Assembly: GCF_006345805.1 (NCBI RefSeq)
Contig: NC_043001.1
Location: 72,478,001 to 72,542,000, forward strand
Length of the DNA stretch: 64,000 nucleotides
Source of the DNA: Octopus sinensis
Lineage: Eukaryota
Direction: 5' to 3'
In this document: in pieces, positions 3,541 through 63,056 of the stretch
How the letters are laid out: the number at the start of each line of letters is the position of its first letter
Position numbering within the stretch: position 1 is the first letter of the stretch
Notes under the pieces: generated by a model
What the model saw: only the letters and a program-made list of their open reading frames with translations
What the model was told of the DNA's origin: nothing
Database searches by the model: none
Program-made: the position numbers and the translations under genes

Positions 3541-4184
3541 GAGATTTGATTGTCGTTCCAAGTTGTTTTTTTTTATAAAAGAATTTAGAGTTATTGAGTA
3601 GTGAATCATTGAAAGCTCGGTTAAAATTATGTAAGGAATGAACTAAGTAGAAACACGCCAAAGAAAAATATCAAATAATTTGCAAAAAGCAAGAATGTAA
3701 GGTTTACTGCGATGGCTCGAAATTCCTGTCAACTTTTTCTTTCTAAAACTTAATAAATATGTACTCTACTAAAAGTATTGAGTAATTTTTCAGTTTTATG
3801 TTAGATTGTTTTATATATAACTTGACATAAACACAGACACATTCATATAACGCAAACGTGAAGTAATCTTTATTTAAAATATTTGGAAAGTTTTGCACAG
3901 TTACAAAGCACCGATACAAACAGATTTCAACTTCACGAAGAAACCTTAGATTATAAAGCATTTGTAAACAGCTGTCTATAAATTTAAATTCTTAAGATTG
4001 AAGAATTCATCAAGTTCATTGTCCAGTAATGGTTTCCCAGATTTAAGAGAGTCTATTTAAGTAATGCTAACAATTGCAATCTTGATTGTCAGATTTTGGA
4101 TGATCTTTCAGTATACTGAGATTAATCTTAATAGATTTGTGAGTTTGGTTGAAGCAAGTTAGTCAGTCGGTTTTCAAATTATCC

Positions 4185-4585
4185 GCGCAGAAGTGGCTGT
4201 GTGGTAAGTAGCTTGCTTACCAACCAAATGGTTCCGGGTTCAGTCCCACTGCGTGGCACCTTAGGCAAGTGTCTTCTACTATAGCCTCGGGCCGACCAAA
4301 GCCTTGTGAGTGGATTTGGTAGACGGAAACCGAAAGAAGCCCGTTGTATATATGTATATATGTGTGTGTGTGTGTGTTTGTGTGTCTGTGTTTGTCCCCC
4401 CAACATCACTCGACAACCGATGCTGGTGTGTTTACGTCCCCGTAACTTAGCGGTTCGGCAAAAGAGACCGATAGAATAAGTACTAGGTTTACAAAGAATA
4501 AGTCCTGAGGTCGATGTGCTCGACTAAAGGTGGTGCTCCAGCATGGCCACAGTCAAATGACTGAAACAAGTAAAAGAGAAAAGAG
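4185..4585 (+). mobile_element. tRNA-head SINE, family B (CORE-like box, internal microsatellite)
   Basis: A-box GTGGCTGTGTGGTAAG, B-box GGTTCAGTCCC, CORE-like GTGGCACCTTAGGCAAGTG, internal (TA)/(TG)n, tail ..GACTGAAACAAGTAAAAGAG; multiple copies in window. Confidence 0.9.
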
Positions 4586-4811
4586 AATGTTAAACAAGAG
4601 GCAAAAGATAACAAATTTTATGGTATCAGTTTATGCGTTTGTATCATCAAAAGTCAGAGAAGTGCAGCTTCAAAACGCTGTTTAGAATTATTCATAGAAT
4701 GGCCTAAATCCTTGGGACGCAAATTTCAAAAATCAAATGTGTTTTTTTCTAGGACACACTGTTACTGAGCCTTTCGGTGACATACAGATATACATACACA
4801 CATATATTCTC

Positions 4812-8448: not shown

Positions 8449-8451
8449 GTA

Positions 8452-8926
8452 TTTTATTCTTTTATTCTTTCACTCGTTTCAGTCATTTGACTGCGGCCAT
8501 GCTCGAGCACCACCTTTAGTCGAACAAATCGATCCAAGAACTTATTATGTGTAAGCTTAGTGCTTATTCTTCCAGTCACATTTGCCGATAAGTTACGGGG
8601 ACGTAAACACACCAATATCGGTTGTCAAGCGATGATGGTGGGGACAAACACAGACACACAGATACATACATACATACATACACACATACATACATACATA
8701 TATGTATATATAATATATGTATATATAATATATGTATATATATAATATATGTATATATAATATACGACGTGCTTCTTTCAGCTTCCGTCTACCAAATCCA
8801 TTCACAAGGCTTTGGTTGGCCTGAGACTATAGTAGAAGACATTTGCCAAAGGTGCCACGCAGTGGGACTGAACCCGGAACCAGGTGGTTAGGAAGCAAAC
8901 TTCTTACCACATAGCAACTCCTGCGT
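8452..8926 (-). mobile_element. SINE family B, full length
   Basis: Reverse complement of the 4185-4585 pattern with expanded internal (TATG)/(TA)n. Confidence 0.9.
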
Positions 8927-9199
8927 CTCTATATATTTGTACATTGTGGCGCATTAAATTCAGATTGGTGGACTGTAACATTGAGGGGATTTGTTTCCAC
9001 TAATATAGCATAAAGGAAACAAATCATTGACCTTTCGATTAGTTGTCCAGTCTTCTGTCCTAGTGGTCATTTGCACCTTTCCGAACTGTTTTACAATAAT
9101 GGTTTAAAAAGGGTACGGTGCAAATAAATCGGTTCAAAAGTATGTGTGTACCACCTGTTTTGCTTCGATTTGAATAGAGCAAAATGATTCTATGACATT

Positions 9200-14133: not shown

Positions 14134-14519
14134 ATCTAATTTCGGCGCAAGGTCAGCAAGTTTAACGGGGTGACGTGAGGGTGGGTGCCTAGTCGGTTAC
14201 ATCGACCCAATATTTAACTGGTACTTTATTTTATCGACATCCCCACCCACAAAGTGAAAGATAAAGTTAACCTCCGTGAAATTTCAACTCAGAACTAAAT
14301 AACCGGATGAAATGGTGTTAAGCATGTTGTCCGATGCGCAAAGAATTCTGCCAGCACGCATCTGAGCATAACAACTATTCCTATAATAAGCACAAAACTT
14401 GAAGTTTGGGGGATAGGGTCTAGTCGGTTACATCGACCTAAATGCTCAACAGGTACTTAATTTATCGACTCTGAAAGGATGAATAGATAAGTCGACCTCG
14501 GCGGGATTTGAACTCAGAA
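14134..14519 (-). mobile_element. Two diverged SINE family A copies
   Basis: GGTACTT..TTATCGAC..GAAAG..GTCGACCTCGGCGG..TTTGAACTCAG pattern occurs twice. Confidence 0.75.
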
Positions 14520-14626
14520 GTTCGTCCTCACATTGTAATTTTCAGCAGTTTAGTTGGAGGAGCAAACCAACAAGTTTCACAGATAGATTAAATATATGTT
14601 TATTAAACATATGTCACATATGGTTC

Positions 14627-15124
14627 AAGGCGGGGAGTTGGCAGAAGCGTTACCACGTCGGGCAAGATGTTTAGTAGCGTTTTGTCCGTCTTAACGTTCT
14701 GAGTTCAAATTCCACTGAGGTCGACTGTCTTTCAGCCTTTCGGGATCGATAAATTAAATACCAGATGAGCACTGGGGTCGATGCAATCGACTTACCTCTT
14801 TTCTGTGAAACTGCTGGCCTTGTGCCAAATTTTGAAATCATCCGCTGGGCGAAATGCTTAGCAATATTCCCTCTGCTGCTACGATCTGAGTTCAAATTCC
14901 GCCGAGGTCGACTTTGCCTTTCATCCTTTCGGGGTCGATAAATTAAGTACCAGTTACGCACTGGGGTCGATGTAATCGACTTAATACCTATGTCTGTCCT
15001 TGTTTGTCCCCTCTATGTTTAGCCCCTTGTGGGTAATAAAGAAATAGGTATTTCGTCTGCCGCTACGTTCTGAGTTCAAATTCCGCCGAGGTCGACTTTA
15101 CCGTGTGCCTATAGTAGAAAGGAT
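14627..15124 (+). mobile_element. Tandem SINE family A copies, including one Tx1-like-tail variant
   Basis: Copy 14627-14840; copy ~14842-15046 ends TGTCCTTGTTTGTCCCCTCTATGTTTAGCCCCTTGTGGGTAATAAAGAAATA and joins GGTATTTCGTCTGCC of a further body. Confidence 0.9.
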
Positions 15125-15153
15125 TATTATTATTATCATCATCATCATCATCA

Positions 15154-15206
<53 letters not shown>

Positions 15207-15243
15207 GTTGTTGTTGTTGTTGTTGTTGTTATTATTATTATAT

Positions 15244-15458
15244 AAGGTGACAAGGTGGCAGAATTGTTAGCACTCCGGGCATAATGCTTGGCGGCATTTC
15301 ATCCGTCGTTACGTTCTGAGTTCAAATGCTGAAAAAGTCGTGTTTGCTTTTAATCCTTTCGGGGTAAATAAAATAAGTACCTGTTGAACACTGGGATCAA
15401 TCTAATCGACTTAGCCCCTCTCCAGAAATTGCCGACCTTGTATCAAAATCTGAAACCA
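15244..15458 (+). mobile_element. SINE family A
   Basis: Full-length diverged copy after an (ATT)/(GTT)n tract. Confidence 0.85.
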
Positions 15459-16249
15459 TTATTATTATTTCTAGCAAATCTACACAGCTACCATGGTGGC
15501 ATAAAATAAGGGTAGGAAATCATAACAACAGTATGTATTGAGAAATGTGTAAAAGCACTTGATAGATTACTAGTCGATGTCTTAGAGAAATCGCATTATT
15601 GTTGGTGATACGGCTTTCTATCGCAGATATATGAGATGTGTTTGCGACTAAGTGACGTGTGATGACGATTCACCCCTGAACTGAAATAGGCTCCCAGCCT
15701 CTGTATCATGAATGGTTATGTGAGCCATTCCTAACGAAAGCCAGACCTTCTTTCGACCACTACATAAAAAGTATTAAGAAAAGAATGTTATTTAGATATA
15801 CTTTTATTTTAGTTGTTTACACAATTTAAAGCTTGTTTATACTCTTATACAGTCAAAGTTCACAAATTTCCTTATTTAAATTATGAATCATATTCCTTTC
15901 GATAATATCAATATGATTACAAAACTTCTTTGTAGACGATATTTTCTGTTTGGCTGACACTAAGTTTCAAATTACTGGAGTCCGTTGCTCTACTCATTGC
16001 GACGTATAACTGGCCGTGTGTAAACATCGGAGTGGGTAAAAATACACCTACACGATTTAAAGTCTGGCCCTATATCTTGTTTGTTGTGAATGCGCGAGCG
16101 GAATCTTTAGGAATCTGCACATCTACGATGGAAAATAAAGGGATAGTATCGCAAATGTAAACCCTCTAAATTCACGAATAATACGGGGAGGAAATCCAGA
16201 GTTAATTCTCGTCGCCGGAATTTTAACAAAAAAAAAAAATACAAAAGAT

Positions 16250-19512: not shown

Positions 19513-19617
19513 GTGTGTTTGCTTGTGTGTGTGTATGTGTGTATGTGTACGCATTATATACACACATACAAACGTACATACATGCATATATGCATGCATA
19601 CATACATACATACATGA

Positions 19618-19900
19618 CCGTGGTCGGCTTCGCCTTTCATCCTTTCGGGGTCATTGAAATAAATACAGTCAATCAGTGGGGTCAATGTAATCCACTAAAC
19701 CCTTCGCCTAAAATCTTGTGTCAAAATAAGAATGGAAAACGTTGAAGTGGCAAAATCGTTAACACGTCGGACAAAATGCTCACCGTCCGTCTTTATGTTC
19801 TATATTCAAATTCCACCGAGGTCGACTTTGCCTGTCATCCCTTCCAGAGCGATGAAATAAGTACCTGTTAAGCACTACGGCTAATATAATCGATAAGCCC
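19618..19900 (+). mobile_element. Two partial SINE family A copies
   Basis: GCCTTTCATCCTTTCGGGGTC and TTCAAATTCCACCGAGGTCGACTTTGCC. Confidence 0.75.
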
Positions 19901-23007: not shown

Positions 23008-23226
23008 AAGGCGGCGAGCTGGCAGAATCGTTAGCATGCCGGGCGAAATGCTTAGCGGTATTTCGTCTGCCGCTACGTTCTGAGTTCAAATTCCGCCGAG
23101 GTCGACTTTGTGTTTCATCCTTTCGGGGTCGATAAATTAAGTACCAGTCGAGTAGTGGGGTCGATGTAATCGACCAGTCCCCCCTCCCAAAAAAAACATT
23201 TCAGGCTTGTGCCTCTAGTAGCAAGG

Positions 23227-23227
<1 letters not shown>
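23008..23227 (+). mobile_element. SINE family A, best-preserved copy, (ATT)n-tailed variant
   Basis: Complete tRNA-like head, central domain, tail ..CAGGCTTGTGCCTCTAGTAGCAAGG(ATT)n. Confidence 0.95.
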
Positions 23228-23259
<32 letters not shown>

Positions 23260-23295
23260 GAGTATAGGTATATTATTATTATTATTATTATTGAG

Positions 23296-24082
23296 TATAG
23301 GTGGTAGAGGCCTTATACAGCTGGAAAACTACTATAAAATAACCACTATAGGACTGCAAAAATATCTACTTCAGAAGGAAGGAAAACTGATACAAATAGC
23401 GGCAAAACACGAGCAAGATAAAAAACTGTTCTCAGTATTTAAGGAAGCTGACAAATACAAACAAGAAATTATACCACCTAATAAATATGAAGAACAAGAA
23501 GAAGAAGATGAAAAAACAACAAAAGCTATAAAACAAATGAAATCCAAACTAAAAATAGAACAGCAACGAACCATGATAAAACGATGGCAAGAAAGGCCCC
23601 TTCATGGTAAATACTGGACTAAACTAAACGCAAAAGAAATAGACAAAGAAAAATCCCAGCAATGGTTGAGAAGCTCAGGACTCAAAGCAGAGACAGAAGG
23701 ATTTTTAATTGCAGCACAAGACCAAAGCCTCCCCACCAGAAATTACCAAAGAAATATAACAAGTAACTGCAGAATATGTGGAGATGGACAAGAAACAATA
23801 AATCATATTATCTCTGGCTACCCAGTCCTGGCTAAGAAGGAATATATTCACAGACATGACAGAGTTGGAACCTACGTACACTGGAAGCTATGCCAACACT
23901 ATGGAATAACAACGGAAAAAAGATGGTATAGGCACACACCAGAAAAGGCACTGCACACATCCTACGCAGAACACTTTCCATACAATAACCATCAGAGCAT
24001 CACAACAAATCACAGCACATACCCAAGGCACGCAGAGCTGCGCTCGGTAGTGAAGTGAAAGCACGCTATAAAAATAAAACTA

Positions 24083-24148
<66 letters not shown>
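23296..24148 (+). mobile_element. R4/Dong-type LINE 3' fragment, endonuclease region deleted, (AAT)n tail
   Basis: GGRGL..PLHGKYW..LKAETEGFLIAAQDQSL..CRICG..ETINHIISG..YIHRHDRV..WYRHTPEK, then jumps to the ORF end/3' UTR and (AAT)n. Confidence 0.9.
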
Positions 24149-26629: not shown

Positions 26630-28240
26630 AAAGATCAGCTAATGATCAATAAAGCCATAACTGAAGATAGCCGCAGAAAGAAGAAGGATCTATGTATGGC
26701 CTAGATCGATTACCGAAAGACTTTTGATTGTATTCTCTACACATGGATCTTAGAAACACTAGGCATGAACAAAGGTAACACCAATAATCATATAAAATAT
26801 AACAAACGACATGAATAAATGGCAGACAGTGCTACAGCTCCAGACAAACAGGGACTCATAAAAACCAAAGCCATCACCATTAGAAGAGGAATATTCCAAG
26901 GAGACATGCTCTCTCCACTCCTTTTCTGCCTAACACTGAGACCTTTTTCTAACATGCTAAACAGAACTGAATGTGGATACAACTGTTACGGCAAAACAAT
27001 CACCCACCTCTTATATATGGATGACCTAAAACTGTACGCTGCAAATGATAAACAGCTGGAAACATTACTACAGACAGTACATGAATTTATCAAAGAAATA
27101 AACATGAAATTTGGCTTAGAAAAATGTGCTAAAGCAAACTTGAAAAGAGGAAAACTAGTTAAGAGTGGCATCATCACACTAGATAAGGCAAATGAAATAA
27201 GAGAATTAGACCAAAAGCCAGACATACAATACTTAGGAATCAATGAACTAGACAAGATACAACATATACAAATGAAAGAGAAAATAAAAAAAGACGAGTT
27301 AGATTAATACTGAAAACAGCTCAATGCGAAAAACAAGATAATAGTCATCAACGCTATAGCCGTTCCAGTTATAAATTACAGCTACAATATCCTTAACTGA
27401 ACACTAAGTGAACTAATCAAAATAGACAGGAAAGCAAGAAAGATAATGACAGGATTTAGGATGCACTACCAAAAATCTGACTGAAATCTGACAAAATCTG
27501 ATAGAAAGGTTATATATACAACGTATAGAAGGTGGTAGAGGCCTTTTACAGCTAGAAAACTATTGCAAAAAACCATAGGACTACAAAAATACCTACTTCA
27601 GAAGTAAAGAAAATTAATACAAATAGCCACAAAACACGAACAAAACAAAAAACTGTTTTCAGTCTTTAAGGAAGCTGACACGTACAAAAAGGAAGACATA
27701 CTACCTAACAACTATGAAGAAAAAGAAGAAACAATAAAAGCTATAAAACAGTTGAAATCCAAACTAAAACTGGAACAGCAACGGGTCATGATAAAACGAT
27801 GGCAAGAAAACCCCTTCATGGCAAATACTGGGTTAAACTAAACGCAAAAGAAATGGACAAAGCAAAATCCCAATAATGGCTGAGAAGCTCAGGACTCAAA
27901 GCAGAGACTGAAGGATTTTTAATTGCAGCACAAAACCAAAGCCTCCTCACCAAAATTTACCAAAAACGTATAATGAAAAGAAACATAAGTAAATGCAGAA
28001 TATGTGGAGATGGACAAGAAACAATAAACCATATTGTCTCTGGCTGCCCAGCCATGGCTAAGAAGGAATATATTCCCAGACACGACAGAGCTGGGACGTA
28101 TATACACTGGAAGCTATGCCAACACTATGGAATAACAACAGAAAAACGATAGTATAGGCATACACCAGAGGTCACAGAAAATGAGAAAGCAACTATACTA
28201 TGGGATATGCTATACAGAGAAAGAGAAATTAAAGCCAATA
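26630..28240 (+). mobile_element. R4/Dong-type LINE RT-to-zinc-knuckle fragment (same family as 23296-24148)
   Basis: KDQLMINK, IDYRKTFD, RRGIFQGDMLSPLLFCL, HLLYMDDLKLYA, FGLEKCA; 27530-28170 aligns with 23296-23945. Confidence 0.9.
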
Positions 28241-28570: not shown

Positions 28571-28864
28571 TCTGCTTATTTTCTCTATTTAAAATGAGAT
28601 GTGTTGCATTTTATATCTATTGTTATTATTTTTTTCGTTTAATTTGTTTAAACACTGTGTTCTTCGTTGTCTTGTTTATGTACGATAAGTACGGGTGCAT
28701 GTGTGAATCATATAAACATTACATTTATGTGTATTTTTGTAGAAATGAGACTGCATATACGATTATTATTTGTACTCACATTTTTTTCTGTAGCAACATC
28801 GCATTCTCGCGTATTGCATCAATTCTTGTATAGGCAATAACGGAGCAGTCCAGGGTAAAACAGA

Positions 28865-29720
28865 GACCGAGGGGGAGCATTTGGATAGTGGAATGTCTTC
28901 AAGCGCTTAGAACTCTCAGCCAATCGGACAGTGCGATAGGTGGAACGTCCACTTTAAGCTTTTTATAGAGGATTAGAGGAGGGAAAGTGCGACGATGTTC
29001 TTGGGGAGACCTTGGGCGTCGAAGATCAGCTAGTCGCTCTTTTCCGGAGAACCTTCGGGTCGAGACCGATGGAAAATTCCGAAAAATCTCTGGCCTGGCA
29101 GTGCTACCGGGGAGCTTTGCCTGTTCGAGATAAACTTTACAGCCACGGAAGTGCTGTCAGTCGAGCATGTCTGTGATGCGCGCAGGACGACGAAACGGTC
29201 CTGCATGCATTCGTCCAGTGCCCGGGCATTGCTGACCTGTGGGTTTATGTCGAACACCTGCTGTCGCGCGTGGGATGGATCCGGCTGTCAACCGAATTCT
29301 TCGTGAAGATCGCCCCGCCACTTTCCTTCAACCGGAAGGAAAGGCTGTCTTTATATGTCTGGTTGTCATGGCGAAAGAAGTTGTATGGTAGACGAGATTG
29401 AAGGGGCTGAAGACAAACACTTTTCTTCCTGATGAACTTCAAGTTTCACTTGAAAAGGGAAATAAGGGTAGAGAGGGAAGTGTTGTCTTCTAGCCAGTTT
29501 GCTGAAAGGTGAATGAAAGTGGCGAGAATAGTGCGAGTGAACGGGCCCTGAGCATACGCCTGTAGTTGGAAAAAGGAAAGAAAAAAAGGCTCCTGCCCCA
29601 AAACTCATGGCTTTTTATGGGGTTTTTTCTATGAGCAGCCCTCGAACAGAATAATTTTTATTTTTTCCTTTTCTCTCTGTCTTTCTTCCTCTTTTTCTCT
29701 CTCACATGACTTTGTAAATG
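28865..29720 (+). mobile_element. L1/Tx1-type LINE 3' end
   Basis: KSLAWQCYRGALPVRDKLYSHGSAVSRAC..C..DETVLHAFVQC (zf-RVT-like CCHC), then ORF end and pyrimidine-rich 3' UTR; homologous to 32247-33330. Confidence 0.85.
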
Positions 29721-30919: not shown

Positions 30920-30971
30920 CATTATTATTATTATTATATTTCGTTTTTGGATTTGTTTTCTTTTTGTGCGA

Positions 30972-31189
30972 TATAATTTAACAGACTCACTGGTAAAATT
31001 TCCACTTATTTCTTAGTTTAATTTTCCTGACCCACACACATGCGCACAAACAAACAAAAAGGAACGCAGTGTAAATAACGGAATAACGGACAGAGTCAAG
31101 ACTATTGAAAAGGTTGCAAGACGCAACGAAAATTTTAGGAAAATAAAAATAATAAGTGGACATTTTACCGGTGAGTGTGTTAAATTATA
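30972..31189. mobile_element. MITE-like element, 39-bp imperfect TIR
   Basis: TATAATTTAACAGACTCACTGGTAAAATTTCCACTTATT vs AATAAGTGGACATTTTACCGGTGAGTGTGTTAAATTATA (3 mismatches). Confidence 0.8.
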
Positions 31190-31269
31190 AGGCATAAAAA
31201 GAAAATGACTCTCCCCAGAAACAACAGAATATTATTATTTTTTAAAATACAAACTCAACACATGACTGA

Positions 31270-32170
31270 TTGTTGAAGTCTCACAACATCTTGTATTTCT
31301 TACTTTCTAGTATTTTACTAGGTTCATGTCCATACCATTTATCAGTACGTTCAAATCCTAGCTTTCTGCATAGCTTCTAGTGGATTGCTCTCCCTAGATT
31401 GTCGTGTCTTTTCATGCATTCTTTCTGTGCCAGCATGCTACATTCACTTACTATATGAGTAACGCTTTCCTCTCTTGATTTGCATAATCTACATTGGACA
31501 TCTACTTGGTTTTTGACTATCTTGGCGTTTATCCAATTAGTCCTTAATGCTTGATCTTGTGCAGCTACTAGCAAACTCCCTGTCTCCCTCTTCAGCTTTC
31601 CTTTCTGCAACTATAACCATATCTCACTACTACTATTTTCTGCAACTATCTTTACGAATCTACCATGTAACGCCTTCTCCTACCGGTCAGATAATCTCTG
31701 TTCTTCCTTCTGGTTTTAAACTTCATTGGGTTTTTGGTTTCCCTATATCTTTTGACTTCCCTATGTGACTCTGGTAGCTTTTAATAAACTTGTTTCACAA
31801 TTACCAGTATAGGTGTCTGTATCTACTCTAGCTAACTCCACGCAGCCTTCACTAGATTCGTACAATTTAGCTTTGACTTTATTAGCTTCTTCGCCCTTAT
31901 GATGTACTCCTCAATTTTCGTTTTCATTTCTGTAGTTAGTACTCTGTCAGATTGTAACACTCCTAGATACTTATAACTCTCTCCTCCTTTCAATGCTTTT
32001 AATGTCTGGCCATCTGATAATTGGATGCCTTCGCTGTTGACTACCTGTCCTCTTCTCATGACTAATATTGCACACTTATCTACGCCAAATTCTATGCCTG
32101 TATCTTTACTGAAGAGCTTTACAGTCTGTATTAAGGAATCTGTCTCTTTTTCATTCTTACTAAAAATCTT
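31270..32170 (-). mobile_element. R4/Dong-type LINE fragment, further family
   Basis: IEFGVDKCA..GESYKYLGVLQ; LKRETGSLLVAAQDQALRT..CRLCKSREESVTHIVSEC..KRHDNL..WYGHEP. Confidence 0.9.
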
Positions 32171-32191
32171 TGCTCCTACTACTGAGTGTTG

Positions 32192-32246
<55 letters not shown>

Positions 32247-32247
<1 letters not shown>

Positions 32248-33330
32248 TGTTGGTTGGCCAAGGTGGTGCGCTTACTCTTCCGCTTTTTCTGCGGAAGGGG
32301 TGCGTTCCACAGGTCAGGAGCTCCATCTGCTGTTAATAGCTGCTGAATGGTTGCTGATGCGCAGACATGCGCTCAGGCTACGGCATCTCTAGCGTTTCTT
32401 TGACGGTGTGGTCGCCGTTTGTTAGACTCACTTTTCCACAGCTCGTCTCTTTGATTGAGATGCAAACCTGGATTAGGCGTAGACCGAGGAGGAGTGCTTG
32501 GCACCTCAAGTGCCGCCAGTCGGGCAATACGGTCGATGGTAGTTCCACTCTAGCGTTCTATAGAGGGATAGTGGAGAGGAAGTGCGACGACATTCTCGGA
32601 GAAACTCTTGGCGTCGACGAGAATCAACTAATCGGTCTGTTTCAGAAAACTTTCGGGCCTGGGCCTGTAGATAACTTCCAGAAATCCCTTGCCTGACAGT
32701 GCTAACAAGGGGCGGGATAAACTTTACATGTACGGCAGTGTTATCAGCCGAGCTTGCCCAAGGTGCGTGCAGAGCGACGAAACCGTTTTGCACGCCCTCA
32801 TCCAGTACCCGAGCATTGCTGACCTGTGGGTTGCATGTGGGACGGATCCGGCTATCAGTTGAATCCATTGGCCGGGAGGGGCAGGCCAAAGAGGTAGTAT
32901 GGTGGACTCGTCTGAAAGGGCTAAAGTCAGATACGTTCCTCTTTGGCCAAGCCCTCATCAACTTATTGAGTTTCACTTGAAGGGGAAGGTGAGGGTGGAG
33001 AGGGAAGTGTTGCGTTCAAGCAAGTTTATTGAAAAATGGGTGAATGTTGAAAGAATGGCCAGTGTGAAAGGCCCAATTCTGCGCACTTGTGAAAAATTAA
33101 AAGAGAAGGGCTCTTGTCTTGTTGATCAGGCACCCGTGGCTTTTGTGGGTTTTCCCACGAGAAACCTTAAAGCGCCTCCCTCTATTGGGAGATTTCTGTT
33201 TAATTTTTTATTGCTTTCTAATGTTTACACGCTGTAAAATCCTTTCTATCGTCTTGCGTTATCTTTTGTGTTGTGTCATGTCATTGTATGTTGTTTAATG
33301 TAAGCCTTTGTGGCTAATGAAAGAATAAAT
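32247..33330 (+). mobile_element. L1/Tx1-type LINE 3' end inserted in (ATT)n
   Basis: LMRRHALRLRHL..KSLA*QC..RDKLY..C..C..ETVLHALIQY..AKEVVWWTRLKG; tail ..TAAGCCTTTGTGGCTAATGAAAGAATAAA(TTA)n. Confidence 0.85.
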
Positions 33331-41778: not shown

Positions 41779-41819
41779 TTATGCGAGAGAATCTTCTTCT
41801 TCTTCTTCTTCTTCTTCTT

Positions 41820-41850
<31 letters not shown>

Positions 41851-41957
41851 TTATTATTATTATTATTATTATTATATTATTATTATTATTATTATGCGAG
41901 TTAAGGCAGCGAGCTGACAGAAGCGTTAGCACGCCGGGCGAAATTCTTCTTCTTCTT

Positions 41958-42039
<82 letters not shown>

Positions 42040-42154
42040 TATTATTATGCGAGTTAAGCAGCGAGCTGACAGAAGCGTTAGCGCCGGGCGAAATTCTTCT
42101 TCTTCTTCTCTTCTTCTTCTTCTTCTTCTTATTATTATTTTATTATTATTATTA

Positions 42155-42191
<37 letters not shown>

Positions 42192-42988
42192 ATTATTATT
42201 TTATTATTATGCGAGTTAAGGCAGCGAGCTGACAGAAGCGTTAGCACGCCGGGCGAAATGCGCAGCCGTATTTCGTCTGCCGTTATGTTCTGAGTTCAAA
42301 TTCCGCCGAGATCGACTTTGCCTTTCATCCTTTCGGGGTCGATAAATTAAGTACCAGTTACGCACTGGGGTCGATGTAATCGACTTAATCCGTTTGTCTG
42401 TCCTCTCTGTATTTAGCCCCTTGTGGATAGGTATTTCGTCCGCCGCTGCGTTCTGAGTTCAAATTCCGCCTAGGTCGACTTTACCTGTCATCCTTTCGGG
42501 GTCGATAAATTTAGTACCAGTTACGCACTGGGGTCGATATAATCGACTTATCCGTCTGTGTGTCCTTGTTTGTCCCCTCTATGTTTAGCCCCTTGTGGGC
42601 AATAAAGAAATAAGAAACGTTAGCACGCCATGCGAAATGCTTGGCAGTATTTCGTCTGTGTTTATGTTCTGAGTTCAAATTCCGCCGAGGTCGACTTTGC
42701 CTTTCATCCTTTCGGGGTCGATAAATTAAGTACCAGTTACGCACTGGGGTCGATGTAATCGACTTAATACCTATATCTGTCCTTGTTTATCCTCTCTATG
42801 TTTAGGCCCTTGTGGGTAATAAAGAAATAGGTATTTCGCCAGTCGATAAGTTCTGAGTTCAAATTTCACCGAGGTTGACTTTGCCTTTCATCCTTTCGGG
42901 GTCGATAAATTAAGTAACAGTGGAGTACTGGGTCGATGTGATCGACTAGTCCCCTCCCCACAAATTTCAGGCCTTTCCAGTAGTAAGG

Positions 42989-43869: not shown

Positions 43870-44245
43870 ACCTATAATATGATCTACCTACCGCAGGGAT
43901 ACTTTCCTCTCTTCTTTATGAAGAGTTGATTGCGATCGATCTTTACAGCAGACTCAAATGTAAATCAGATCCTCTCTACAAGCAACATCAGGTTTTAGGC
44001 GTAATACCTCGAGTCAGTTTTGTTCGGACTCTGAAAGAGTGAGTGGACGAGTTACTTCTCTATACACGCATCTTGGACAGGACTAGCTGATAGTACTACC
44101 ATATCTATAGAGTTTATCCTGAACTAGCAACAGAACAATACACCTGGTAGCATTACTAAGCCAATGATGTTTAGAAATTCACTACAGTCTTTAATCTAAA
44201 AAGCTTGAAGAGTATTTTCAGTTGATCTTTATCGGACGTCCAGAA
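43870..44245 (-). mobile_element. Old L1/Tx1-type fragment
   Basis: DQLKILFK..TSLA**CYQ..VQDKLYRYGSTIS*SCPRC aligns with the zinc-knuckle region at ~29020-29220. Confidence 0.6.
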
Positions 44246-44899: not shown

Positions 44900-45769
44900 C
44901 GAGGGGTACCCAAAAGTAACTGGAAACGTTCTCTGTGGGACAAGCCCGTTGTAGTTCAGGCTTCCGCTGCTAGAAGCCACTTGATGCGACTTCAGGCCGG
45001 CCGGCGTTGTCCAGTGAGGTCATACTGTCATATGGTGCATTTTTGTATTGTAGAGCTTCTTCCCTGTTCATAAATGTTTGCGTTGGCTGAAACAAAGGAA
45101 CAGCGTACTTCCATGATATTCTGTTTTCTGTTGAAGAAAATGGCGGCCGAAACAGTTGTCATACTTCAAACAGCTTACAAGGCTGTTTCCATAAGCAAAA
45201 CACAAATTTACAAGTGGTTTTCACGCGTGTCGCTTCAGACCCAACCTCATTCAGGGCGACCGTCGATCTCCCGAACGAATGAAAACATAATAATTCATGA
45301 AATGGTCTTGGAGGACAGTCACCGAACAATTGACGAACTTGTTGATATGAACGGTGTGTCCTGGAGCTCCTGCGAACGAATTTTGAGCGAGGAATTACGA
45401 ATGGAAAGAGTTGCATCAAAATTTGTGCCTCGTTTGCTCACGGAAGATCAAAAGCAGTCATAACTGAATGCGTGTCCTGAACTGGAAGGACAGTTGGAAT
45501 TTGATCCGGACAATTTATTCGAAGGTTATCACTGGTGACGAAAGCTGGTGCTATGGTATTTGCCGATGTGGAAGAGGTGAAGAAGAACGACGGAAACGTT
45601 AAAAGGCATCACTTCGCAAGTGTTCTATCACTGCTTCGAACTGTGGAAAACGCATCTTGACGGATGCATTGCTTCAAATGGAGAATACTTTGAAAGCATT
45701 AAGTGTAAAGATGTGAACCTAAGTGAATAAAATACTGCAAAATTCGGTGTTCTTTTGGGTACCTCTTCG
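44900..45769 (+). mobile_element. Internally deleted mariner with TIRs and TA TSD
   Basis: TA-CGAGGGGTACCCAAAAG ... CTTTTGGGTACCTCTTCG-TA; HTH (EQRTSMIFCFLLKK.AAET..QTAY..YKWF, SGRPS, FVPRLLTEDQK) and ITGDESWCYG; most of the catalytic domain is deleted. Confidence 0.93.
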
Positions 45770-55423: not shown

Positions 55424-58400
55424 GTCAGGTCGCTCTAGAGTGCTACTGGTAACATGTAATCCAGTACAACCTGTTGCATGGTCGGGACGTCGGCGACTAA
55501 ACTGACAACCCCACCAGGTTCGCTTGGTGAGGAGGGTGCTGTTGGACTCCCTGTGGGATGGAAAAATAAGACCCAACAAAGGGCGGATGAACTCCCGAAG
55601 AGTCAACGGGCCATCCAACAAAATACCGGCCTGCCCGCCCAGCCAGTGGGATGGCGTCATCTTATGGCTAAAACAGCACGAAGAAAGAAGAGAAAAGGAA
55701 AAGGGCCTCAGTACCCTGCACGTCAATCGGGCCACTCCATGACGGCGGAGTGCAACTCGAGCGACGAGAAGCTGCTAAGAATCACAGGTTCCCGAAAGCC
55801 GTCATGGAACAGGAGTAAACTTGCCATATGCACCTACAACTGCAGGTCTATGGCAGGATGGCAAGAACTGAACCACCTAATGGAGGAGAGGAAGAAGATC
55901 AGGTGCGACGTGTTAGGGCTGTGCGAGACACGCTGGAAGACGGAAGCGAGTAAACGATGGCAAGATGGATGCATTGTGAGATTAGGAAAAGCAGAAGGTG
56001 TTAGATCGGTCGGAGGTATCGGATTCATCGTAAGTAAGGAATGGGCTTCGAGGGTCGCTTCTTGCCACTTCATATCATCACGGATTGGTGTACTAAATGT
56101 GAACCTCTCAGGGAAGGCCACCCTCAAGATTGTCCAGACCTATGCTCCCACAAGTACCAGCGACGACGACGAGGTGGAAGAATTCTATCGACAACTAGAC
56201 AAAGGGTTGGCTATGAAGTCCACTTACACTGTCGTGATGGGAGACTTCAACGCAAAGGTTGGACATGGACGACAAGGAGAGGAATACGTCGGGAGATTTG
56301 GCATGGGAGAGAGAAACGAGAGAGGGGAACGTTTGGCTACCATGGCAGAGGCGAGGCAGCTCTACATCGGAAACAGCCTATTCAGGAAGAGGGAGAGGAA
56401 GAGATGGACTTGAATATCGCCGAACTCTAAGCACCGAAGCGAGATCGACTACATCCTGGTTGATAAGCGACGCATATTGCATGACGTCTCCGTCATGACG
56501 CCATTCAACGCCGGCAGCGATCATCGTCTGGTAAGGGCGAGAGTCGTCATCGACGAGAAGAGGGAGAAGATGGCGTTATATTTGGCGTCGAAGGGAAAAC
56601 GTGTCCGAGTCTACAACGAGGCAAAGCTGCAGGAAGCCATCATGCAGGAAGACTGGTGCCAAGGAGACGATATAGACGATGACTACAACTCACTGATAGG
56701 GAAACTGAAGGAGTGTTTAAGGAAGGCTAAGGGTGTATGCCCAAGAGAAAAGAAGGGAAGAATCTCGGAAGAAACTACGAAGTTACTCGAGAAGAGGAAA
56801 AATATGAAGAGGACTATTGAAGATCACCTTGAATATTCCATTCTCAGCAGAGTGATTCGTCAGCAACTAAAGAAAGACTTTGAGGCATATCGGATGGAGA
56901 AGCTCTTGAAGGCCGCAGAGAAAAAGAAGAGCCTCAAGAAATGCAAGCGGGACATGGTACTATATAGATCGGAGGTGATGGCCCTGAAAAATACAGATGG
57001 AATACCGGTCAACGAGAAGAGCGAGATGGAAAAAGCTTGTGAAGACTTCTACACCAAGCTCTTTAAGTCTACCAGAAATGTCCAGCCGTTACCACCACTC
57101 CAACAGGAAGAAAACGTGCCACCTATCCTTGTCAGTGAGGTTGAAAGAGCCATCGGCTCGATGAAAAAAGGAAAGGCTCCAGGGAAAGACGGTATAACAT
57201 CGGAGGTGCTAAAGTCAGGCAGAGAGCAGCTCTGGAAAATCCTCGCTGAGCGATTTACGCACTATCTAGACGAGGGAAGAATTCCCTCGCAATGGAAAGA
57301 GTCAAATACCATAAGAAGGGCGACAGAGAAGATCTAAAGAACTACCGACCCATATGCCTGCTATCTCACGTGTACAAGCTGTTCACGAAGATAATTCTGA
57401 ACAGGTTGTCACGTCGTCTCGACGAACAACAACCGAGGGAGCAAGCAGGCTTCCGGAAGAAACTACAGCACAATGGACCATATATTTGCTCTAACGCAAC
57501 TGATTGAGCGAGCAAATGAGTACAAGCTGCCTCTTTGCGTTGCGTTTATAGATTATGAGAAGGCCTTTGATTGCGTCGAAACCAACGCAGTGCTGAACTC
57601 GCTGCAGAGGCAAGGAATCGAAGCACAATATGTGCAGCTGCTCAGAGAGGCAAATTCCGGATGCACCACCGACATAGCTCTACTGTCATCACCCATACGA
57701 GTGCCGGTCGAGAAGGGAGTGAAGCAAGGAGATACAATCTCCCCAAAACTTTTCACTGCATGTCTCGAACAGATCATCAGAGACATCGAATGGCAAGGTG
57801 GTGTCAACATCAATGGCGAGCTCCTCACTCACCTTCGTTTCGCTGACGACATCGTACTCATCGCTGAAAACATGGATCAGCTTCAGACCATGCTGACGGA
57901 GCTCGACATCAAAAGTTCTGCAGTAGGTCTCAAGATGAACCGCATGAAAACAAAGTTCATGCGGTCAGACAAAGTACCAACAGGTCGAATGGTGATTGTC
58001 AGTGATGAAATAGAGGAGGTGAGAGAATATGTCTACCTGGGACAGGAAGTAAATATGTGCCGGATATCAAAGAGGAGAGCTCACGGATGGAAGGCGTTCA
58101 ATGGCATGAGGTATGAGCTCAAGGGAAGGTTGGACAGGACCACCCGCGCCAACCTCATTAACAGTGCAGTTCTGCCTGCAATGTTATATGGTAGTGAAAC
58201 ATGGGCTACCACAAAGAGAGAAGAGCAAAGACTGATAACGGCTCAAAGAGCCATGGAAAGGTCATTGCTTGGTATCTCGTTGAGAGAGCACATAAATAGC
58301 AACATCATCAGAAAGAAGTCCGGCGTGAGAGATGTCATCGCAGAGTATACTCGCAGCAAGTATAGATGGGCTAGACACGTTGCCCGGCTCACCGATAATC

Positions 58401-58608
58401 GGTGGACGCTCGCAGTTGTCGAGTGGTACCCGCGTGAGCGGAAAACACCACCCAGAAGACCTCCACGACGGTGGAGTACGATTTCAAGAGGACGATTGGG
58501 ATCACGTGGATGAGAAAGGCGCGATCCAGAGAGGAGTGGACAGCGTGCTGTGACCAGCGGTGTCAAATGGACGCCTGAAGAACTGGTCGGTCAAAGTGAT
58601 CAAGTGAA

Positions 58609-58699: not shown

Positions 58700-60928
58700 T
58701 ATAAAAAAAGGAAATGAAGAAAATGCTGACAAAATAATTTGAGTAAGGGAGAGTGTATTTAAGTAGGTGAAAGTTCTTTTTTTAAACATAAAAAGAGAAA
58801 AATTGGGTTAGAATACAATGTTCATTTTTTGTGAATGATTTCAGTGTATAAGTAAAAATGTAAGAGTCTTTTACAGTGTTCTGTTTCAGAATAAGATATT
58901 TAGTAAAAGCGTGTAATATACAGTTTTTTGTGGAAAAGTTCAATGTCAGATTTCAGTGTAGAAAAAAAAAAGTAAGAGTTTACTATTGCGCATTTGTTAT
59001 GCTTATCAAAAGATATTTTGAGTGAGATAGAGTTCCTTTCTGATTGATTTTTTCTCTTATTGACTTTATGTTGGGTTTGCTGTCTCTTATATGTGAAAAA
59101 AGAGGCTCCAGAGTTGTTAAGATTTGCTTGGTTTCGCGCTAAAATTTCTTGTGGACAATGGTCAATACAATTTTGATTGGTCATTATAAAGGAGTCACGT
59201 GAATGTTTGAATGGAAGTTGGTGTTGGGTAAGAAAATAGGCTCCAGAGATGTTAAAATTTGGCTGGTATCGCGCCAAAATTTCTTATTGGTCATAATAAA
59301 GAGGTCACGTGAAGTGGTCATAATAGAGAGGTCACGTGAATGTTTAGAATGAATGTTGGTGTGGGTGGGGTGGGTTTTCGAAAATAGCGTGTTGAAAATT
59401 CTTATTGTTCAGGCTGGTCAGTAGACGTCATGTGGATATTTTGAATAGCTTTTTAGCGCGTAGTTCAAAGGAGTGTATTTTCCGCTTGACTGAATTTGGG
59501 CTGGAAAAGTAAGTTCGTTTAGGACAGGAAGAGCTACATGTATGTGTGTGTGTGGTGTGTGCGCGCGCGCGCGCGCGCGTGTGTGTGTGTGTTTATATGT
59601 ATGTTGGGGCGCGCGCGCGTGTATATATGTGTGCGTGTGTGGGTACAATTTTCAATATTTATAGTACTGCTGGCCTTGTGCCTGTATCGGGAAGCAACGT
59701 GTTTGTGTGAAGTCAATATTTACAGTCATTTCAAAAAAATAGTGTTGGATGTTTTGCACCCGTATCAAATTATGTGTATGTGTGGACCATATGTTTGCGT
59801 GTGTCATGGTGTTAATATCTGGGTAAAAGTGTGTGTAGGGTGTGTGCAGGTGTAAGTGTGTTTGTTGTGGGTTCGTGTTAGGGGGATGTGTTTAGAAGTG
59901 GTAAATATTGACTTCAAACAAACACGTTGCTTTCCGATACAGGCACAAGGCCAGCAGAACTATAAATATTGAAAATTGTACCCACACACGCACACATATA
60001 TACACGCGCGCGCCCCAACATACATATAAACCCACACACACCACACACACACGCGCGCGCGCGCGCACACACACACATACATATAGCTCTTCCTGTCCTA
60101 AACGAACTTATTTTTCCAGTTCAAATTCAGTCAAGCGGAAAATACACTCCTTAACTACGCGCTAAAAAGCTATTCAAAATATCCACATGACGTCTACTGA
60201 CCAGCCTGAACAATAAGAATTTTCAACAACGCTATTTTCGAAAACCCCACCTACCACCCACACCAACATTCATTCTAAACATTCACGTGACCTCTCTATT
60301 ATGACCACATTCACGTGACCTCTTTATTATGACCAATAAGAAATTTTAGGCGCGATACCAGCCAAATTTTAACATCTCTGGAGCCTATTTTCGTACCCCA
60401 ACATCAACTTCCATTCAAACATTCACGTGACTCCTTTATAATGACCAATCAAAATTGTATTGACCATTGTCCACAAGAAATTTTAGGTGCGAAACCAAGC
60501 AAATCTTAAACAACCCTGGAACCTCTTTTTTCACATGTAAGAGACAGCAAACCCAACATAAAGTCAGATAAGAGAAAAAAATCAATCAGAAAGGAACTCT
60601 ATCTCACTCAAAATATCTTTTGATAAGCATATTAAATGCGCAACCGGTAAACTCTTACTTTTTTTATTCTACACTGAAATCTGACATTGAACTTTTCCAC
60701 AAAAAACTGTATATTACACGCTTTTACTAAATATCTTATTCTGAAACAGAACACTGTAAAAGACTCTTACTTTTTTTCTTATACACTGAAATCATTCACA
60801 AAAAATGGACATTGTATTTTAACCCAATATTTCTCTTTTTTTGTTTAAAAAAAGAACTTTCACCTAATTAAATACACTCTCCCTTACTTAAATTATTTTG
60901 TCAGCATTTTTTGCATTTCCTTTTTATA
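58700..60928. mobile_element. ~2.2-kb foldback element (~1.02-kb inverted arms, ~177-bp spacer)
   Basis: 58700-59723 is the reverse complement of 59901-60928 throughout, with scattered substitutions; no ORF. Confidence 0.9.
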
Positions 60929-61959: not shown

Positions 61960-61960
61960 T

Positions 61961-63056
61961 AATATTTGTCATAAGGCAATACATAGAGGGGACGGACAAG
62001 GACAGACAAACATAAACAGGGGGAAGTAGCTTTAAACGATTAAAAATAAACAATGATTATCATACAGATGAGATTAAAAATGAATACATTGCTAAAAGCA
62101 ATATTTAACACGAAGGAAAGGCATCCTACAGCAGAGTAGAAACTTTGCTTACTTTCCGTGGCTCCGCTCACTTGGTGCTAGTTACTCCCAGTTTTCTCTC
62201 CACAAGCTTCCATCTTTTTCTGAATTTTTCACGTGACAGGTACCTCTTCTCCAGCCTGATCTTACTGCTGAGGTGGTAACTAAAAAAGTTGACCAACCTC
62301 TGGCCAGATACGGAGCTACCTGTCACAATCCCTTTCAACCGCGTCTTCCATACTCTTTCTTTCAATATGGCCACCACGCAGAAAAAAACAGGCCTTCCTC
62401 TCCCCGCTAAGGGAAGGAGGCGTCACAATCTCGATGATGTACTCAGCTGATAGCTGTACTCTTCCCATCGAGGACAACATTTGCTACTATTGAGGTGGGT
62501 AGGATTTCTGAAGCTCATAGTCTTAGGATCTAGCGGGTGAGGTTGGGGTCCAGATGAATAGTTCGTAGAGCTCACAATAAGGTGGCTAAGTTTGCGTCTA
62601 ATGGAAGAGGCAGTTATAGATCCCAAGTTTGTTGTTGTAGTGTACAAGATTTTAAGATTTGTTTATGGTGTGGAGGGAAATTGAAACTTAGGATTTTGAA
62701 AAGTAGCTTGGATAGAGATTTAACCTGGAGAGAGAATGGTGGTGCAGGGTATAAGATATTCTGCTTCTTCCCTTGGAGGACTTAGAACGCAGCGTAGTGT
62801 CGGGTAGGTGACCCAGGCGAAGCTGGAGATAATTCAAACGCCGTAGCGGCCGGAATACCCGTCGAGTACTGGCTGCAGCGGAATTCTGTTGGAGGGTGAT
62901 GTGGATGGGTAGAGGCATGCCTAGTGGTCTTAGATCCTGCCATTAGTGGGATAGTAAGTATATTTCAAACTCAAATCTAGCCGCTTTTTCTGGATTTGGT
63001 TCTGGAAAAGCAGCAGCGAGTTGTTTCTCAACGTAATGTAGATTCACTCGTTCTCA
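61961..63056 (-). mobile_element. L1/Tx1-type LINE derivative, probably internally deleted
   Basis: 62460-62168 encodes LSAEYIIEIVTPPSL..LKERVWKTRLKG..LVNFFSYHL..KIRLEKRYL..KFRKRW, homologous to the ORF ends at ~29280-29520 and ~32850-33090; 3' tail at 62012-61961. The assignment of 62460-63056 as the 5' part is inferred. Confidence 0.7.

Follow-up and report, generated by a model that had tools for sequence, protein, structure and literature searches.

A LINE-derived SINE tail joined to the hairpin tip of its own family's head in octopus: a candidate for self-nesting

The closest known system to the element considered here is SINEU-3 of crocodilians with Tx1-Mar (Kojima 2015, PMC4494074), in which 90% of SINEU-3 copies lie beside Mariner-N4_AMi; here and below, papers are cited for parts of their contents. 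Insertion into the own family is described for Alu, with a hotspot of nearly 19,000 Alu-into-Alu cases at one nucleotide position (Levy et al. 2010, PMC2836564). Target-specific families of the Tx1 clade include Tx1L, Keno, Kibi, Koshi, Mutsu and Dewa (PMC4494074, PMC3706591), and the A box of tRNA genes, TAGCTC, is the target of Dada DNA transposons (PMC3706591). In octopus, the tRNA-headed tRNA-Core and tRNA-Deu SINEs and OR1/OR2 are very abundant, and 13 families of L1-Tx1 LINEs are reported to have been recently active in Octopus vulgaris (PMC8967140, PMC13282606, PMC4824008). The parts of two octopus repeat papers used here (PMC13282606, PMC8967140) make no mention of nesting or target preference, and a search of the literature, mostly open-access and with Repbase outside its scope, returned no report of a SINE that targets its own head.

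What, then, is to be made of a SINE whose tail runs straight into the head of another copy of the same family? The junction described here is real and genome-wide: a LINE-derived SINE tail is joined, at a fixed position, to the hairpin tip in its own family's head.

The SINE A family and its tails

The window, meaning the whole 64-kb stretch of DNA that was analysed, is animal DNA with many microsatellites and repeats. BLAST and alignment recover from it 15 monomers and two extra head fragments of a non-coding unit of ~220 nt, here named SINE A; the monomers are spread over seven places and 12 of the 15 cluster head-to-tail (Table 1). In this unit a head that carries A-box-like and B-box-like motifs is followed by a conserved body and then by tail A, B or C, and more than 500,000 public contigs per run match it. 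The sequences TGGCAGAATCG and GAGTTCAAATT are both present, and from the usual consensus we take the former to be A-box-like and the latter B-box-like. ARAGORN recognised no tRNA in the head and Rfam holds no match to it, and three short body motifs are missing from the MetaSINE paper's supplement; the Meta sequences in the part of it used here look unrelated to SINE A. A spurious translation of the unit matches an annotated Octopus bimaculoides protein, and the family is thus an octopus repeat; as a proxy for the junction, spurious translations returned two proteins, neither informative on it. Scanning prokaryote, viral and metagenome contigs for motifs was uninformative: most scans had 0 hits, and the one metagenome hit was discarded as fortuitous, lying in AT-rich DNA that appears to be bacterial. 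The tail-C copy at 660-878 carries an imperfect repeat of ~16 nt on both flanks.

Table 1. Coordinates of the SINE A monomers, LINE ends and associated features within the window.
Position	Strand	Feature
14627..14841	+	Older SINE A copy, tail C, then head fragment at internal TAGC site
14842..14884	+	Head part of monomer A1, diverged (7 private differences in 43 nt)
14885..14981	+	Body of A1, young, contains B-box-like GAGTTCAAATT; compared with M3, 0 differences in 97 nt
14982..15046	+	Tail A of A1, homologous to L1/Tx1-group LINE 3' ends; 4-bp stem with CTTGT loop, 15022-15034
15047..15122	+	Monomer B1 (downstream), from GGTA; internal deletion, tail-B end, then (ATT)n
15123..15241	+	(ATT)n-type microsatellite
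15243-15462		Another complete SINE A copy (tail C), beyond the microsatellite
23008..23226	+	Intact reference SINE A copy, tail B, flanked by (ATT)n tracts
32248..33328	+	Other L1/Tx1-group LINE 3' fragment, tail-A-like end with the same stem-loop, between (TTA)n tracts
42216..42429	+	M1: complete head; body young; tail A shortened
42430..42612	+	M2: begins at GGTA, older body, tail A
42613..42829	+	M3: begins at AGAA within the A-box-like motif; head diverged, body young; ends in tail A
42830..42988	+	M4: begins at GGTA; body older; tail B followed by (ATT)n
61960..62483	-	L1/Tx1-group LINE 3' fragment, end homologous to tail A, joined to SINE B at the TAGC hairpin tip

The earlier note had described the tail of this variant as Tx1-like, and both a LINE origin of tail A and a place of that LINE in the L1/Tx1 group are borne out by alignment of the tail to LINE ends and by the ORF2 domains. 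Against the 3' ends of the 62-kb and 33-kb LINEs none of 300 shuffles scored as well as tail A in any of the four comparisons, whereas against the 29-kb LINE fragment 42 and 66 of 300 did, and that end is not considered aligned. The protein P0076, an ORF2 that carries APE, RT and zf-RVT domains and is closest, among solved chains, to human L1 ORF2p, matches LINE fragments of the window (E values 2e-66, 2e-62 and 6e-15), among them those at 62483-62171 (minus), 32248-33081 and 28834-29548, and a HMMER search with the LINE C-terminus gave 71 relatives. By their sequence the fragments with tail-A-like ends are members of the L1/Tx1 group. ZCCHC3-type domains are a mark of Tx1 ORF1, and P0076 scores 327 bits against a fish protein with RNA-binding domains of this type and 175 bits, obtained with a different program, against human L1; together the higher similarity to the fish protein and this marker favour Tx1 over L1. 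The relatives of P0076 include no named Tx1 reference, the protein atlas yielded unnamed RT clusters only, a related-locus scan returned nothing and plasmids gave no match. No LINE ending in exactly tail A was found. A fourth L1/Tx1-group ORF2 match, at 43935-44130 (minus), is highly decayed and has no recognisable tail.

Tails B and C have no significant primary similarity to the LINE ends tested against 300 shuffles, nor do they match any other LINE end of the window. Tails A, B and C and the 33-kb LINE end nevertheless have in common a 4-bp stem closed by a YTTGT loop. In the alignment of this stem-loop, 84% of cells are paired and 11 cells have changed on both sides over 11 distinct rows, a result reached by none of 500 shuffles and with lower values in slid controls, the structure having been chosen from the same sequences and the rows of three monomers with deletions there, plus c9 and c10, left out. 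By analogy with the stem-loop of L2 (PMC4176376), it is probably the signal that is read by the LINE protein. Two contig pieces leave tail A at 15010 or 15022, near the point at which the 62-kb LINE end departs from it, and from such sequences there may be further tail variants beyond the known ones.

The window also contains elements of other kinds. A long SINE B at 8450-8930 (minus), with head, microsatellite, second part and a AAAAGAAT-type end, directly abuts the 5' end of a full SINE A copy, and a second long SINE B of this kind is present at 4183-4590. A different LINE type, presumably resembling Dong/R4, has left fragments at 23222-24085, 26819-28240 and 30940-32194, with an RT hit at 26819-27304, most of them beside (AAT)n/(TTA)n; a long, interrupted APE-RT LINE (Exo_endo_phos and RVT_1), which we take to be RTE-like, spans 55460-58513. 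At 1945-2466 and 45074-45463 there are fragments of Mariner-type transposases, with matches to Transposase_1/DDE_3 and HTH_48 that just reach or come close to the cut-off. The stretch 59320-60300 is a long, near-perfect inverted repeat of foldback- or MITE-like type, with arms of ~400 nt that are 83-100% complementary in pieces, a 177-nt spacer and, in each arm, a 30-nt stretch that resembles the tail-C stem-loop.

Junctions of tail A with SINE A heads

Among the 15 aligned monomers, every one with tail A (4/4) runs straight into another SINE A body. The junctions given in the earlier note are exact: at 15046/7, 42429/30 and 42829/30 the sequence resumes at GGTATTTCG (GGTA), equivalent to 23056/7 of the intact copy, and at 42612/3 it resumes at AGAAACG, equivalent to 23023/4. 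These four junctions stem from two loci only. The accompanying claim that copies with other tails are not chained in this way holds for most of them but fails for one of the 10 recognisable tail-B/C monomers, the tail-C monomer at 14627-14841, which enters a head at the internal site 14841/2 (equivalent to TAGC|A, 23035/6, +-1). Two more, at 14370-14520 (minus) and 19614-19740, adjoin the 5' end of the next copy. Internal resumption is therefore far more typical of tail A (4/4) than of tails B and C (1/10), with a Fisher p of 0.005 that is inflated because the tail-A cases share loci and the monomers are not independent.

How general is the junction beyond the window? The stretch is contained in 20 public runs from seven studies with three organism labels, and, with 14780-15122 as reference, the junction is high-copy in the contigs of two species (organisms A and B). 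Summed contig depth in A and B, respectively, is 147 and 135 million over the body and ~82 and 71 million over tail A, which makes tail A one of the major variants; a rough calculation points to copies in the tens of thousands, with the proviso that depth is not equal to copy number. Relative to the bin 15008-15019, depth over the next four bins is 1.00, 0.76, 0.70 and 0.96 in X1 and 1.02, 0.77, 0.71 and 1.00 in X5, where simulated unitigs with all-unique flanks give 0.89, 0.50, 0.21-0.37 and 0.32-0.73. The earlier note had set out random flanks for most tail-bearing copies as evidence against its reading, and random flanks for all of them are rejected by this calibration; the best fit has roughly 40-70% of tail-bearing copies continuing at GGTA, a range that shifts with how many ordinary heads are assumed and with the sequence taken to lie behind the remaining tails, in a simplified simulation with a star phylogeny and assumed divergences. 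At 4/4 in the window and ~40-70% by contig depth, the share lies above the 20% of copies with one target as flank that serves as a criterion in PMC4494074. No loose end behind 15046 is among the best six of a non-exhaustive count for each contig run (the lowest with 655 and 753 contigs), and since unique flanks would head such a list in the simulation, this speaks against unique flanks for all copies.

The claim that the tail is always joined in this way is too strong outside the window. In the 16 contig pieces listed out of more than 443,000, five reach the end of the tail, of which three cross into GGTA and two stop at 15046 and continue with letters that do not match the stretch. Raw reads are sparse, with 22 and 243 of 12.9 million records aligned, and carry no weight for frequencies. 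They do contain, in run X23, the tail followed by 13 nt of the GGTA stretch and then a tail truncated at its 5' end (20 and 45 reads that look like a single variant at one locus in one run), and shorter stubs are seen as a 6-nt form in X23 (9 reads) and a 10-nt form in one X1 joint. The stub joins fit short target-site duplications (TSDs) between successive inserts, or deletions within trimers, and they resemble the SINEU-3 copies that sandwich a TSD (PMC4494074). In X23 there are also 29 mixed-consensus reads in which a SINE A head begins inside a body behind 15099.

The sites at which heads are resumed have a motif in common. The intact copy holds four TRGC motifs, exactly three of them in the head (23020, 23032 and 23053), and each of these three is a resume site, two for tail A (AGAA and GGTA) and the third, within +-1, for the tail-C case, the motif having been defined after two of the sites had been seen. 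A hairpin is predicted at 23041-23068 with the TAGC loop at 23053-23056 (z -1.8 to -2.3), such that the main junction falls at the 3' edge of the loop and GGTA opens the 3' arm; the AGAA site lies away from any loop tip. Below the loop the hairpin has 13 pairs, of which 8-10 are Watson-Crick in each of the nine heads examined except A1 (6), and in M1 the closing pair has changed on both sides. The 62-kb LINE end likewise runs into a SINE B copy that starts just after TAGC, at the tip of the SINE B hairpin (+-2 nt). This is one of six SINE B heads in the window, and no SINE B left half was found upstream of the LINE, where 46 of 200 shuffles scored as well. The junction site is thus common to two SINE families, on few cases and with a motif set after the fact. 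By location, one LINE end lies at a SINE B hairpin tip, one in (TTA)n and none in a SINE A head.

It is at this point that template jumping, with no targeting of DNA, comes into consideration. Reverse transcriptase might stall, or the SINE RNA be cut, at the hairpin loop, followed by a jump to the 3' end of a tail-A RNA, so that a chain would be made in one event. That junctions in two families fall on the loop tips of predicted RNA hairpins would be explained, as would the absent TSD and the absent left half of SINE B at 62 kb, and template jumps have been discussed for 5' extensions of SINEU (PMC4494074). Tail-A RNA would, however, have to accept jumps often yet start insertions seldom, the z-scores of the hairpin are modest, the AGAA site lies off the loop tip and the order of ages in the 42-kb chain (below) is unpredicted. 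We regard this account as improbable.

Monomer ages and the case for self-nesting

Nesting predicts that the monomer which interrupts is younger than the one that it interrupts. In the 42-kb chain, M1 and M3 together differ from the majority core at 1/140 positions and the monomers behind them, M2 and M4, at 9/140 (p = 0.019), which is the order that nesting predicts. The left halves of the heads of M1, M3 and A1 carry 11/103 differences against 1/210 in their own cores, as expected if young copies had entered older heads and been joined to them by homology, but this test is weak given that the left half of the intact control copy also has 4/49 differences. Moreover, the 23 nt that follow the site are diverged in the upstream monomers as well (15/69), which counts against nesting, as a seam at the site does not account for this divergence. 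A 23-nt TSD at the junction was tried and rejected, the first 23 nt after the site differing between each upstream monomer and its downstream neighbour. More generally, the TSDs proposed as a check in the earlier note are absent, in that none links upstream and downstream tail-A monomers in the window.

At 15 kb the picture is less clear. A1 combines an old head (7/43) with a young body (0/97), and the first 53 nt of B1 are identical to the intact copy (0/53); with B1 young and the A1 head old, a young dimer joined to an old copy fits as well as nesting. A-to-I editing was rejected as the source of the diverged stretch in the A1 head, the changes not being A to G. The internal deletion of B1 (15090-15105) sits between two GCCTT-like words, a sequence context that suggests microhomology, and it is rare in public contigs, where depth drops there from 19 million to 9 thousand.

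Such features are also those of a composite master, in which one or a few old joins of tail A to a 5'-shortened monomer gave rise to a multimer that is read through and copied by way of tail B into (ATT)n, with a junction fixed by inheritance and not by targeting. Both chains finish in tail B and (ATT)n and have no T4 terminator within, and no run of four T follows tail A in the copies of the window; read-through multimers are therefore possible. The youth of both B1 and the A1 body, the lack of a TSD and the great abundance of the junction in two species point the same way. Dimeric SINEs are, besides, a known class (PMC3531059), and in arrays of the blood clam the first monomer has a full head, the inner heads are all cut short to the same extent and the last tail is complete (PMC11481361). 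Against a composite master stand the second resume site, AGAA, for the same tail end, the unequal ages of the 42-kb chain in the order that nesting requires, the derivation of the downstream monomers from two subfamilies (M2 and M3 of tail-A type, B1 and M4 of tail-B type) and the LINE end at the equivalent site of a second family, SINE B. On balance we judge this explanation rather unlikely, with a modest lean to self-targeting over it.

The chains might, alternatively, have arisen by local tandem amplification of a SINE fragment in DNA, through unequal crossing-over or slippage as in the SINE-derived satellites described in squamates (PMC10702118). Three near-identical SINE A head fragments with common private changes lie between (TTC)n(TTA)n tracts at 41790-42260, and those at 41890-42260 are a case of local duplication or assembly stutter, which shows that such events occur here; the tandem unit of tail and 13 nt in run X23 is of the same tenor. 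Yet neighbouring monomers are less alike in their cores (85-95%) than the A1 and M3 bodies at different loci (0/97 differences), monomers within one chain being no more alike than monomers from different loci; unit boundaries vary within a single chain and the same junction recurs at separate loci. Tandem amplification thus has a very poor chance of being correct. A Helitron-like rolling-circle unit was also rejected: Helitrons end in TC...CTRR, and by eye the unit ends carry no such signature.

This leaves preferential self-nesting with some copying of dimers, to which we give about an even chance. The earlier note had read the variant as mobilised by a site-specific Tx1 protein whose target is the SINE head, a reading that stands in part. 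In its favour are the LINE tail, the fixed high-copy junction in two species, the age order at 42 kb and the LINE end at the tip of another SINE, the last of which supports targeting of the head tip, together with the two resume sites (GGTA and AGAA) for one tail end, which support nesting. Counting against it are the missing TSD, the monomer at 15047, as young as the one upstream of it, and the 33-kb LINE in (TTA)n.

In such a process the SINE, with its tRNA-like head, would likely insert into pre-existing heads by target-primed reverse transcription. Tail A matches two LINE 3' ends, and its 4-bp stem with the YTTGT loop keeps pairing despite two-sided changes; a LINE protein would recognise this stem-loop and copy the SINE RNA. 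Its endonuclease is predicted to favour TRGC and, most strongly, the TAGC loop that tops the head hairpin, the observed junctions lying just 3' of TRGC and the main one at the tip. Following a cut at TRGC, the 5' end of the new copy would be joined by homology to the left half of the target, giving the order head, body, tail A and rest of the old copy, and repeated rounds would build chains. With no run of four T after tail A, read-through RNAs that end in tail B could also be copied as dimers into (ATT)n, in which case part of the high junction count would have been copied rather than newly made. A further proposal, possible if doubtful, is that a Tx1 endonuclease is specialised on the TAGC tip of tRNA-like SINE heads and is exploited by the tail-A SINE, which would have inserted into itself tens of thousands of times, the left halves with their A box re-promoting 5'-truncated copies, so that the target is regenerated and truncated progeny are rescued.

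If self-nesting is correct, a large part of a very common octopus repeat has grown by self-insertion at a site marked by structure, and the own head would be a safe, self-renewing target that also provides half of a promoter. SINE heads would join the known targets of Tx1 endonucleases, with a nuclease guided by sequence or by the hairpin; repeat libraries would mis-model such loci as dimeric subfamilies, and nested insertions could be used to order SINE waves in time. If instead the multimer reading is right, the element is an ordinary complex SINE.

Comparison with known systems

Like the Alu hotspot, the SINE A junction has the form of a sense-oriented insertion into the own family at one position, but Alu makes use of an A-rich linker and a loose L1 endonuclease, and the hotspot involves a small share of Alus (PMC2836564). 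In SINE A, a share of roughly half or more of the tail-A variant occupies the site, and this site is a hairpin tip in the head. Alu in total amounts to about a million copies.

The target-specific Tx1 families named at the outset are APE-type LINEs that choose repeats, small-RNA genes or microsatellites, and the 33-kb LINE in (TTA)n recalls the microsatellite-targeting members; in the parts of PMC4494074 and PMC3706591 used here, a SINE head is the target of none of these families. SINE monomers that follow one another head-to-tail and begin at a fixed 5' truncation are also found in the blood clam and in squamates (PMC11481361, PMC10702118). The inner monomers of the blood clam, however, have truncated tails and are put down to recombination (PMC11481361), whereas each inner monomer of SINE A has a complete LINE-like 3' end.

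With SINEU-3 the likeness goes further: machinery of the Tx1 clade takes that SINE to one fixed position in a repeat of high abundance, as it probably does for SINE A, and tandem copies of SINEU-3, first called a dimeric subfamily, were later explained as sequential insertions (PMC4494074). The two differ in the nature of both target and element: SINEU-3 enters an unrelated DNA transposon, has snRNA-derived heads and has no 3' tail in common with its LINE (PMC4494074), whereas SINE A, with no TSD seen between its tandem copies, has a LINE-derived tail and, as its candidate target, its own promoter region.
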